Positions 20,355-22,085 of a stretch of 24,578 nucleotides of DNA are shown here, piece after piece. The notes beneath the pieces are model-generated. The model saw only the letters and a program-made list of their open reading frames with translations, was not told the DNA's origin and made no database searches. Position numbers and translations under genes: made by a program. Source of the stretch: Candidatus Heimdallarchaeota archaeon (GTDB taxonomy: Archaea; Asgardarchaeota; Heimdallarchaeia; JABLTI01); NCBI GenBank assembly GCA_019056785.1, contig DXJV01000046.1, positions 1-24,578 of the forward strand, in the 5' to 3' direction. Position 1 is the stretch's first letter. Each line of letters starts with the position of its first letter.

Positions 20355-20951
20355 ATGGGTTTTGTAATGGATTCTGGAGACGAACTACTGGTAGGTGGAG
20401 ATGAGCTCTTCTTCACCGAACGCTTTATAGCCCACTATAACTTTATGCTAGAAGACTATGTCCCAAATTACGATAAACCAATTGCTTTTTTTCTTAGTTG
20501 TTCCAAACACAAACCCTATAACCGGTCGCCCTATCGGCGCGTTCTAAATGCCATGCTTGAGAAAAAAATTGGCATTCGAGATTTAAGCCAATTTTATACC
20601 ATCAGCGAACCTGCTATTGTTGTCCCAGAAGAGTTGGATGAAACAAATATCACGCAGTATGATTTCCCTCCAGACTTAATGAAAGCGGAAGGACGAGAGA
20701 TTTTTGTCAACCGGTTAGCTAATCTTTTACCAAAATTGCTTGCAGCTCACAAGATACTTTTTTATATTCTCCCCCGGCATCATCGAGGAATTTTCGAAGA
20801 AGCACTTGCAAAAGCGAGAACCGGACCCAATGCAAAGCTTCTGACCCGCAAATTAGTTTATGCTCCTCCTCTTACCTATAATCTCCCCAAAGCCCGGAAA
20901 ATCATTGAAGAAACACTGCTGGAGAACAGCTTCAAGATTGAAAGTAGGTGA
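20355..20951 (+). CDS. Stand-alone ArcS-core (DUF5591-like) domain protein
   Basis: IAFFLSCSKHKPYNRS, TISEPAIVVPEEL and YDFPP match the archaeosine synthase ArcS/TgtA2 core (LPCSxxKPYSxS, SPxGxVPxEL, YD). There is no PUA domain. Start is 20355 or 20367. Confidence 0.8.
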   Translation: MGFVMDSGDELLVGGDELFFTERFIAHYNFMLEDYVPNYDKPIAFFLSCSKHKPYNRSPYRRVLNAMLEKKIGIRDLSQFYTISEPAIVVPEELDETNITQYDFPPDLMKAEGREIFVNRLANLLPKLLAAHKILFYILPRHHRGIFEEALAKARTGPNAKLLTRKLVYAPPLTYNLPKARKIIEETLLENSFKIESR

Positions 20952-20960
20952 AATGTTCCG

Positions 20961-22085
20961 TTGGCACAAATAGTGGTTGATCCAAATGGCTTGGCGCGTG
21001 AAAAAGTCACGCAGATCAATGGTAAAAAATTTCATACGCCAACCATGATGCTCACTTATTCTTTTCGCGACAACAACCCCCGTCCTTGGCTTGCTATTCC
21101 GAATTGCTCGGTAATGACTAATGCTTTTGACATTCTACGGAACAAACGATTGGCTAAACGCATTGCTACCAATGGCATCCATTCTGAATTGGGATTAACA
21201 AATGAAATCTGTGCGATGGATTCTGGTGGTTTTCAATTCATCTCGAAAGGTGAGGAAGAGGCCATCAATCCCGAAGAAGTAATTGATTTGCAGATCGCTT
21301 CCGGCGTGGACATTGCCGTTGGCTTGGATTATCCTCTTTTACCAAACTTTTCAGAGGAGAAAGCAGCCATTCTTGCGAAGAAATCCATTGCCAATATTCA
21401 AATGGCAGTTAAGCGAATTAAAAATGGCACTGAAGTTATGCCTGTTTTGCATGGGAATTCGGTGGCAGAAATATCTAACTATTTTACAAAGGTTAAGAAG
21501 CTGGGTGAGTTTAAAATATGGGGTATTGGAGGTCTTGTCCCACAGATGAAGCAATCTTTTCCATCCCACAAACGGTATTTTAAAATCATCGACAAGGTAA
21601 TCCGGGCACGCGAATTATTGGACTCTCTAGAGGGAAATCCTTTACTTCATATTTTCGGTGTTGGGAGTCCCTTAGCGGGGTTGCTCTTCCTTCTTGCAGG
21701 AGCGGATAGTATTGAGAGCATCAGTTGGATTATGAACGCCAAATACTTTCTGGTCTATCAAGACAAAATCGGAGCCCGTAAGGTCAGCAAGCAAACGACG
21801 ATGTGTACCACGAGTGTTCAATGGGATTCTTATTCTTGCTCTTGTCCTGTATGTAAAGGCCTCCCTATCGACCAAGTCGAGGAAAAAATGAAGCTTCGTG
21901 GCAATGAAGGGTTTAGGAATCGCGCTTTACACAATGCCTTTATCTACCAGCAGATCGCCGCTGAGGCAACAAAAGCCATCGAAGAAAATACACTCCTTTC
22001 TCTTTGTCGGGAGAAATTAGAGAACCACCGGTTTTTCAAAGGGATTCTTCACTACACTATTGACAAGCTCCAAAAATGCCGCTAA
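20961..22085 (+). CDS. tRNA-guanine transglycosylase (TGT) family protein, catalytic barrel + Zn domain only
   Basis: TPTMM, MTNAF, MDSGGFQ, LDYP, GIGGLVP, LHIFGVG and GADSIES motifs, with Zn site CSCPVC...HN. The TTG start lies 9 nt after AGGTGA, which overlaps the upstream stop. Confidence 0.9.
   Translation: MAQIVVDPNGLAREKVTQINGKKFHTPTMMLTYSFRDNNPRPWLAIPNCSVMTNAFDILRNKRLAKRIATNGIHSELGLTNEICAMDSGGFQFISKGEEEAINPEEVIDLQIASGVDIAVGLDYPLLPNFSEEKAAILAKKSIANIQMAVKRIKNGTEVMPVLHGNSVAEISNYFTKVKKLGEFKIWGIGGLVPQMKQSFPSHKRYFKIIDKVIRARELLDSLEGNPLLHIFGVGSPLAGLLFLLAGADSIESISWIMNAKYFLVYQDKIGARKVSKQTTMCTTSVQWDSYSCSCPVCKGLPIDQVEEKMKLRGNEGFRNRALHNAFIYQQIAAEATKAIEENTLLSLCREKLENHRFFKGILHYTIDKLQKCR

Follow-up and report, generated by a model that had tools for sequence, protein, structure and literature searches.

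To our knowledge, all 7-deazaguanine marks known in DNA are found in phages, viruses or restriction-linked islands (Dpd). The subject of this report is a pair of adjacent genes in a Heimdall-type Asgard archaeon, in which a small protein corresponding to the catalytic core of archaeosine synthase (ArcS), here called mini-ArcS, is encoded directly upstream of a short paralogue of tRNA-guanine transglycosylase (TGT). The pair lies on contig C43 of a metagenome-assembled genome (G000) that is 82.5% complete; this contig, at its full length of 24,578 nucleotides, is referred to as the window. The closest described systems are viral modules that combine DpdA, a member of the TGT family, with ArcS2 (Hutinet 2019, PMC6884629; Cui 2023, PMC10516641). 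One of them, DpdA2 plus ArcS2 of Vibrio phage nt-1, gives rise to dG+ in plasmid DNA in Escherichia coli without RaSEA (PMC10516641). The roles of the catalytic residues are known from Salmonella DpdA; the nucleophilic Asp is invariant in both the TGT and the DpdA family, and its substitution by Ala abolishes exchange by DpdA (PMC10164549).

The archaeal pair is a conserved, intact and family-restricted paralogue of the archaeosine enzymes, and comes on top of the usual route to archaeosine rather than being a housekeeping system. It is read here, tentatively, as an orphan, restriction-less and vertically fixed 7-deazaguanine writer of the DpdA/ArcS2 lineage, which uses preQ0 made by the host and acts most likely on DNA. 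On this reading, it would be an orphan, domesticated module of the DpdA/ArcS2 type, with Glu at the nucleophile position of its transglycosylase.

The two genes are predicted to form a single operon. They are co-oriented and separated by a gap of 9 nt, and the stop codon of mini-ArcS (TGA, 20949-20951) is overlapped by an AGGTGA sequence, which bears out the tight linkage described in the initial annotation of this DNA. Homologues of mini-ArcS begin at MDSGDELL, which makes the ATG at 20367 its probable start and gives a protein of 194 aa. The pair is not a chance juxtaposition, since it recurs with the same neighbours in 10 of 11 related genomes. The A/T-rich region between the pair and the divergent longin/membrane gene is common to both and is presumed to hold the promoter of the pair. 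In domain profile searches, the only match of mini-ArcS is Pfam DUF5591 (31 bits, cut-off 26, covering only profile positions 8-99 of 150), and the TGT paralogue matches Pfam TGT with 80.6 bits and carries a CxCxxC...H zinc site. No PUA, C2 or other RNA-binding domain was detected in either protein by these searches. The initial description of the two proteins as an ArcS core and a TGT reduced to its barrel and zinc site therefore stands. There are no tRNA genes within the window.

To which ArcS-like proteins is mini-ArcS related? The equivalog models for ArcS, NF040592 and NF053620, give it only 20-24 bits (cut-offs 440 and 600, respectively). Of the four-domain Nt-C1-C2-PUA architecture of ArcS it has the C1 core alone, without the N-terminal, C2 and PUA domains. 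This core fold is recovered in the AlphaFold 2 (AF2) model (predicted local distance difference test score, pLDDT, 91.1), whose sole match in the PDB is 2Q07 (AF0587; Foldseek E 6.8e-5), by sequence an ArcS C1-C2-PUA protein (profile match, 35 bits). The ArcS signature has been defined as PC-X3-KPY-X2-S-X2-H (PMC10516641); in the alignment, mini-ArcS keeps Cys49, Lys53-Pro54-Tyr55 and Ser58 but has Ser48 for Pro and Arg61 for His. Both replacements are invariant across the mini-ArcS clade, so that the canonical signature is absent from all of its members. The SEP motif of the ArcS core is kept. Moreover, a P(K/R)HH motif is common to mini-ArcS, the ArcS2 of STSV and a cassette DUF5591 protein (see below), whereas canonical ArcS has SDEY instead; its H143 is invariant in the alignment of mini-ArcS homologues.

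The same affinity is seen in sequence comparisons. Mini-ArcS is 38% identical to STSV2_16, the ArcS2 of the Sulfolobus virus STSV2 (E 1e-22), and to the counterpart from STSV1, but only 26% identical to the ArcS of its own genome (E 3e-6); phrog_34505 matches it with 73 bits. A HMMER search over 1.84 billion cluster representatives returned 67 relatives at E <= 1e-3, three of them of the Heimdall type. The nearest relative from outside Heimdall (P0152, 39% identity) is encoded beside an integrase in a cassette of the order NurA-HerA-1413 aa protein-DUF5591-TGT. Another relative, the 202-aa DUF5591 protein P0154, has a housekeeping-looking context with no TGT after it. DUF5591 cores are also found embedded in proteins of 940-1120 aa (P0175, P0185, P0198, P0206, P0207, P0214 and P0216). 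By sequence, mini-ArcS is clearly closer to members of such modules, that is, to viral ArcS2 and cassette DUF5591, than to canonical ArcS. Its origin lies in the kind of DpdA/ArcS2 module that archaeal viruses and NurA-HerA cassettes carry.

The TGT paralogue, too, scores far below the models of the established families. The arcTGT equivalog TIGR00432 scores it at 114 bits (cut-off 350), and the DpdA models NF041059 and that of PADLOC give 29 bits (cut-off 200) and 33 bits, also below cut-off. In comparison with the arcTGT structure 1IQ8, it has the TIM barrel, the zinc site and a preQ0-type pocket; the pocket had been proposed in the initial annotation, and its GGLVP and HIFG motifs indeed align with GGVVP and HLFG of Pyrococcus horikoshii arcTGT. 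The residue pattern of arcTGT is broken in two places, with Glu252 for the Asp nucleophile (P. horikoshii D249) and His164 for Gln. Measured against the DpdA active site, Asp87, Asp123 and His164 are all present, and only the nucleophile differs. Neither the Glu nor the His had figured in the initial annotation. The paralogue has neither C1, C2 or PUA in cis nor a dedicated split partner.

Glu252 occurs in all 28 Heimdall-clade sequences tabulated, and every other catalytic TGT examined has Asp. The remaining catalytic, pocket and zinc residues are strictly conserved across the clade. A Glu mutant of E. coli TGT is said to keep some activity; nothing relevant on the TGT mutants D264E or D280E came up in the literature searched. 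The loss of an otherwise invariant Asp, together with the long stem branch of the clade (1.6-1.7), might indicate a binding or regulatory protein. Alternatively, the TGT might have been remodelled to modify a protein or a small molecule with 7-deazaguanine: Cap10 of type IV CBASS (cyclic-oligonucleotide-based antiphage signalling system), a member of the TGT family, conjugates deazaguanine to protein (bioRxiv 10.1101/2025.04.06.647259), its structure 9NTN is among the matches of the TGT model (Z 23.3), and ArcS accepts a nucleoside monophosphate (PMC11298593). Such a non-nucleic-acid or non-catalytic role is unlikely, given that the other catalytic, pocket and zinc residues of nucleic-acid TGTs are retained, that no Cap9/QueC-like or CD-NTase partner is adjacent and that the fold is much nearer to arcTGT than to Cap10.

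The residue at the base edge separates the TGTs in another way. All 70 cassette-tier TGTs tabulated have His, and so do the DpdA-type TGTs of STSV2, SIRV2 and a cyanophage, while the arcTGT of the genus itself and E. coli Tgt have Gln. A tree of 50 TGTs (IQ-TREE, LG+C20) recovers the Heimdall TGTs as a monophyletic clade (100/99) and places them with the cassette TGTs and the DpdA-type TGTs of archaeal viruses, with an ultrafast bootstrap (UFBoot) of 96 and a Shimodaira-Hasegawa-like approximate likelihood-ratio test (SH-aLRT) value of 89. On the far side of this branch lies arcTGT, as do E. coli Tgt and a paralogue of about 300 aa. The TGT of the pair probably stems, as far as can be read from sequence, from the same DpdA/ArcS2-type module as mini-ArcS. 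Together, the 38% identity of mini-ArcS to STSV2 ArcS2 and the 96/89 branch give substance to the relation with DNA-modifying DpdA enzymes that had been raised in the initial annotation. In a tblastn search of 50,697 phage records, the TGT paralogue has no match at E 1e-3; only mini-ArcS finds viral relatives. Prediction of a complex between the two proteins from their two alignments gave a score of 0.01, which is evidence neither way.

Is the pair a recent arrival or a settled part of the genome? In a survey of 83 species genomes of the class, mini-ArcS orthologues (>=58% identity) are found only in family f1, which comprises 12 genomes in two genera, including that of the window. They are present in 11 of these 12; the one genome without them is 69% complete. 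Other families of the class match mini-ArcS only through full-length ArcS. Close homologues of both proteins are encoded on the same contigs of metagenome bins labelled Heimdall or Asgard, with one Thorarchaeota and one Zixibacteria label as exceptions, for which binning or labelling is the probable cause. The gene order in f1 is AFOR, TrmB-like, TPR protein, 219-aa protein, GAPDH-like, longin/membrane (-), mini-ArcS, TGT, (choice-of-anchor S) and NTP-transferase-like (-). This order is the same across both genera, and the pair has diverged to a degree similar to that of its neighbours. Thus, the gene pair picked out by the initial annotation is kept across f1, in synteny and with invariant residues, and its locus belongs to the vertically inherited core and is no mobile island.

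The ordinary archaeosine pathway is encoded elsewhere in the same genome. A full-length ArcS of 650 aa (DUF5591 170 bits, plus C2/PUA) is found on contig C88, followed directly by RaSEA (327 bits, cut-off 212), whose presence in G000 is thereby confirmed, and two genes further by a QueD-like gene. RaSEA therefore adjoins canonical ArcS and not mini-ArcS. Contig C65 carries QueC and a QueE-like radical-SAM gene and, with QueC, QueE-like and QueD-like genes present, preQ0 should be available. The absence of que and RaSEA genes noted in the initial annotation holds for the window but not for the genome. Similarly, the possibility that the pair represents the only tgtA/arcS homologues can be dismissed for ArcS by the protein on C88. 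Canonical arcTGT (534-540 aa, 491-501 bits) was identified in six genomes of the same genus; at least five of the six also carry the TGT paralogue of about 375 aa, and all six carry mini-ArcS. With ArcS and RaSEA elsewhere in the genome and arcTGT beside the pair in congeners, the proposal of a non-canonical module is strengthened.

In four genomes that keep ArcS (G000, G005, G006 and G007, all incomplete assemblies), canonical arcTGT was not found. The 15-kb arcTGT neighbourhood, which is syntenic between G004 and G010, is almost wholly missing from the assembly of the window's genome, neither G005 nor G006 has the flank, and G007 has a truncated frame of 455 aa. The absence is at the level of the region and is therefore indistinguishable from an assembly gap. 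The canonical arcTGT of G004 (L034 6662-8269) is 536 aa long and has only the TGT Pfam domain, with C2 and PUA separate.

A stand-alone C2+PUA protein of 175 aa (L008 1249-1776, -) is present in 80 of the 83 genomes. Because of this class-wide distribution, it is assigned to the split canonical arcTGT and not to the pair. It was considered as a trans partner of the pair and rejected, as it occurs whether or not the pair is present; a PUA protein of the kind sought after the initial annotation exists, but it is not specific to the pair. In G000 it adjoins a 288-aa gene. Stand-alone C2+PUA frames of about 160-200 aa prevail in families f1-f5, and f6 has only fused frames of 640-690 aa.

These findings bear on another explanation, according to which the TGT paralogue, as the catalytic half of an ordinary arcTGT, and the stand-alone C2+PUA protein together make ordinary G+15, with the 198-aa protein as a redundant fragment of ArcS. 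The TGT paralogue is, after all, the only catalytic TGT found in a genome that is 82.5% complete, the C2+PUA protein exists, and split and PUA-less arcTGTs are known (PMC10516641). However, the real arcTGT of the genus scores about 500 bits and co-occurs with the pair, the whole arcTGT neighbourhood is missing from the assembly, and the C2+PUA protein is indifferent to the presence of the pair. Furthermore, the equivalog models give the TGT only 114 bits (cut-off 350) and mini-ArcS only 24 bits (cut-off 600), and the TGT has Glu as nucleophile and His as edge residue. A split housekeeping arcTGT/ArcS is accordingly very improbable.

A more serious possibility is that the pair is a second 7-deazaguanine system for RNA, which would modify another tRNA position or another RNA, or serve as a backup or replacement of arcTGT at G15, with mini-ArcS finishing the base without RaSEA. 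G13 of Thermoplasma tRNA-Leu is a precedent for a position other than G15. Several observations speak for RNA and weigh against the DNA-writer reading. The AF2 model of the TGT (pLDDT 89.6) is nearest to arcTGT 1IQ8 (VIA Z 38.5, root-mean-square deviation 2.5 over 340 residues, 24% identity), with lower Z for bacterial TGT (32.0), QTRT2 (28.5), DpdA 7UI4 (26.4) and Cap10. The profile score is likewise far higher for arcTGT than for DpdA, and the pocket is arcTGT-like. An approximately unbiased (AU) test does not reject the grouping of the Heimdall TGTs with arcTGT (delta lnL 13.2, p 0.10), and the His signature is not universal, as the cassette TGT L046 has Gln. The neighbours are housekeeping genes, with no NurA, HerA or giant protein and no DpdB or DpdC among them, and a search of the window's genome gave no homologue of the giant protein. 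A housekeeping-like, vertical locus without a restriction partner also suits an RNA-modification enzyme, and the lack of arcTGT in four ArcS-keeping genomes means that the TGT paralogue could feed tRNA. RNA-binding domains may not be required, as the PUA domain is dispensable for archaeosine formation (Sabina and Soll 2006, as cited in PMC11298593), and ArcS acts on minimal substrates (PMC11298593). A further point against the writer reading is that its TGT would have to catalyse exchange with Glu252 in place of the nucleophilic Asp.

On the other side, arcTGT coexists with the pair in at least five congeners, which means that the two are not simple alternatives, and the missing arcTGTs are a feature of whole regions in incomplete assemblies. 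Mini-ArcS is nearest to the DNA-acting ArcS2 of viruses and to cassette DUF5591, not to ArcS, while the maximum-likelihood tree and His164 point to a DpdA-type clade. Both proteins lack RNA-binding domains, and the C2+PUA protein is not specific to the pair. For action on DNA there is also the precedent of phage nt-1, and ArcS needs no tRNA architecture (PMC11298593). DNA is favoured as the target, with due reserve, on account of the descent of the module, its His signature and the missing RNA-binding domains. RNA comes close behind: the fold resembles that of arcTGT, the context is one of housekeeping genes, there is no restriction or ATPase partner, and arcTGT was not found in four genomes.

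If the pair is a DNA writer of the DpdA/ArcS2 lineage, how might it work? Host QueD, QueE and QueC, whose genes are present, would supply preQ0. Judging from the conserved residues, the TGT paralogue would flip a guanine out of the nucleic acid and replace it with preQ0 by double displacement, with Asp87 as the acid/base, Glu252 as the covalent nucleophile in place of the usual Asp, and His164 and Asp123 reading the base edge. By analogy with the biochemistry of ArcS and ArcS2, mini-ArcS would then add an amine to the nitrile, giving an archaeosine-type formamidine or related adduct, and this addition would lock the base against reverse exchange. The conversion by ArcS also blocks reverse exchange (PMC11298593). 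On this reading, the pair would descend from the NurA-HerA-giant protein-DUF5591-TGT cassette, serve for self-marking and be related to viral DpdA plus ArcS2. A bolder proposal, which must be considered doubtful, is that this lineage of Heimdallarchaeia domesticated a DpdA/ArcS2 module derived from viruses or defence systems for constitutive, restriction-free marking of its chromosome with an archaeosine-type base, using a Glu-nucleophile transglycosylase. The Heimdallarchaeia are among the closest archaeal relatives of eukaryotes.

A partner-less, vertically fixed cellular writer would be a new use of 7-deazaguanines, whether in genome marking, virus evasion or regulation. If DNA self-marking is indeed its function, its product would be the first orphan 7-deazaguanine mark in the DNA of a cellular organism, a counterpart to that of an orphan DNA methyltransferase. 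If the target is RNA, the pair would represent a second archaeosine-type route that dispenses with RNA-binding domains and RaSEA. With either target, nature has run an experiment on the covalent-intermediate mechanism in the clade-wide change of Asp to Glu. Since only two small genes are involved, the question can be tested directly in E. coli.

The features of the window are collected in the table below. The divergent gene next to the pair encodes a protein that begins with a longin-like region and has a YgaP-like membrane hairpin, and is kept beside the pair in most f1 genomes with 59-62% identity. The GAPDH-like gene is a divergent type-I member (155 bits, cut-off 367) that is conserved at the locus; in several congeners, however, the protein at this position shows no more than about 25% identity, as if a paralogue had taken its place.

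Features of the window discussed in the text, with positions on the 24,578-nt contig
Feature	Position	Strand	Description
DUF6884 protein	159-884	+	241 aa; 31.7 bits
GAPDH-like	18164-19192	+	
Longin/membrane gene	19466-20185	-	239-242 aa
Intergenic region, candidate promoter of the pair	20195-20354	.	A/T-rich; TTTAATAT-like box about 35-40 nt upstream of the first ATG
Mini-ArcS	20355-20951	+	stand-alone DUF5591 / ArcS C1 core (ArcS2-like); 198 aa as open reading frame
Variant ArcS signature SCSKHKPYNRSPYR	20496-20537	+	canonical form PC-X3-KPY-X2-S-X2-H
His142-His143 of the P(K/R)HH(R/K) motif	20778-20783	+	mini-ArcS alignment
Shine-Dalgarno-like AGGTGA	20945-20950	+	overlaps the mini-ArcS stop, 10 nt 5' of the TTG of the TGT gene; translational coupling, as read from the sequence
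PUA-less TGT paralogue	20961-22085	+	374 aa, TTG start; barrel and zinc subdomain
Asp87 (MDSGGFQ)	21219-21221	+	putative general acid/base; corresponds to D95 in P. horikoshii and to D95 in Salmonella DpdA
Asp123 (GLDYP)	21327-21329	+	putative base-edge recognition Asp; alignment
His164 (PVLHG)	21450-21452	+	Gln in tRNA TGTs; equivalent to DpdA His181
Glu252 (GADSIES, codon GAG)	21714-21716	+	nucleophile position; Asp in TGT and DpdA
Zinc site Cys293-x-Cys295-x-x-Cys298 ... His324	21837-21932	+	alignment

At the other end of the window, the DUF6884 protein aligns along its entire length with a DUF6884/YaaA-like protein of the congener G002 (30% identity, E 2e-37), encoded there beside a DpdA-type TGT in a defence island. 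DUF6884 could be a DpdC-like family of 7-deazaguanine enzymes. Orthologues are found in nine of ten genomes of the genus, mostly unlinked to the pair, and G000 has two more copies (C40 and C98). A role of this gene as a linked third component was rejected, as in most congeners its orthologues lie on other contigs.

The genus contains further TGT systems. The TGT of G002 just mentioned (L045, G002:C26:8000-27999; 384 aa, ~11663-12814, -) is of the cassette type, is 40% identical to cassette TGTs and represents a third system in that genome. It has no DUF5591, NurA or HerA nearby; besides DUF6884, its defence island holds genes for an AIPR/Mrr-cat nuclease, a CHAT-TPR protein and two DNA methylases. 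Another TGT-like paralogue, the fourth in the genus, is very divergent and about 300 aa long (L027, G005:C181; L028, G004:C97). It keeps DSGAF, the Gln, the Asp and the zinc site, its branch in the tree is long, and no copy was found in the genome of the window.

The NurA-HerA cassettes were sampled in six TGT-anchored contexts, the named ones from Thermoplasmata and Methanomethylicia, whose TGTs are 28-38% identical to the TGT paralogue. In five of the six, a DUF5591-only gene overlaps the TGT gene directly upstream; in L021 the order is reversed, with TGT first and DUF5591 last. The other members are HerA (DUF87), a protein of about 1400 aa and, where the contig extends far enough, NurA. The giant protein (L020 2986-7230, L021 11917-16233, L046 2720-6961) belongs to no Pfam, NCBIfam, PADLOC or PHROG family, and its sole match is a faint one to an MCM8 winged helix. 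MmeI-type restriction-modification, DUF1156/DUF499, HEPN/NTase, QueC and YhhQ-family genes are found next to the cassettes. No description of such a cassette was found in the literature searched (HerA, NurA and 7-deazaguanine), and a search combining Asgard, archaeosine and transglycosylase likewise returned nothing relevant.

How does the pair compare with the known systems? With canonical arcTGT and ArcS/RaSEA it shares the TIM barrel, the zinc site, the preQ0-type pocket and the DUF5591 core, but it falls far below the equivalog cut-offs, has no C1, C2 or PUA on the TGT, and carries His instead of Gln and Glu instead of Asp. The bacterial Dpd system (Gedara 2023, PMC10164549), in which DpdA is the preQ0 insertase, has in common with it the TGT family, the base-edge His and CxCxxC...H. 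In contrast to Dpd, the pair has no large Ins8 insertion, DpdB ATPase, DpdC or restriction genes, and the partner of its TGT is an ArcS core and not DpdC. As for the cassettes, most copies sampled have the same DUF5591-to-TGT order, the coupling is tight, PV(L/I)HG is shared and the TGTs belong to one clan in the tree. The pair differs from them in the lack of adjacent NurA, HerA and giant protein, of a defence island and of a nearby integrase, and in having Glu and GGLVPQ where cassette TGTs have Asp and GSLVP.

Among the viral DpdA plus ArcS2 modules, those of the Sulfolobus viruses STSV1 and STSV2 may be set beside the pair. The pair is cellular, chromosomal and vertically inherited, outside any viral, mobile or defence-island context, and its order is reversed, as STSV has TGT followed by ArcS2. 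The TGT paralogue is 23% identical to STSV2 DpdA, with Glu at the nucleophile position where viral TGTs have Asp, and it keeps the zinc site, which is missing from the TGTs of STSV and SIRV; the signature of mini-ArcS departs from that of the viral ArcS2 modules in the changes of Pro to Ser and His to Arg. The basic design is nevertheless the same, namely a short, PUA-less TGT and a co-oriented, stand-alone ArcS C1 core (PF17884) encoded by adjacent genes, with the SEP and PKHH motifs in the latter and the His signature of the STSV2 and SIRV2 enzymes in the former.

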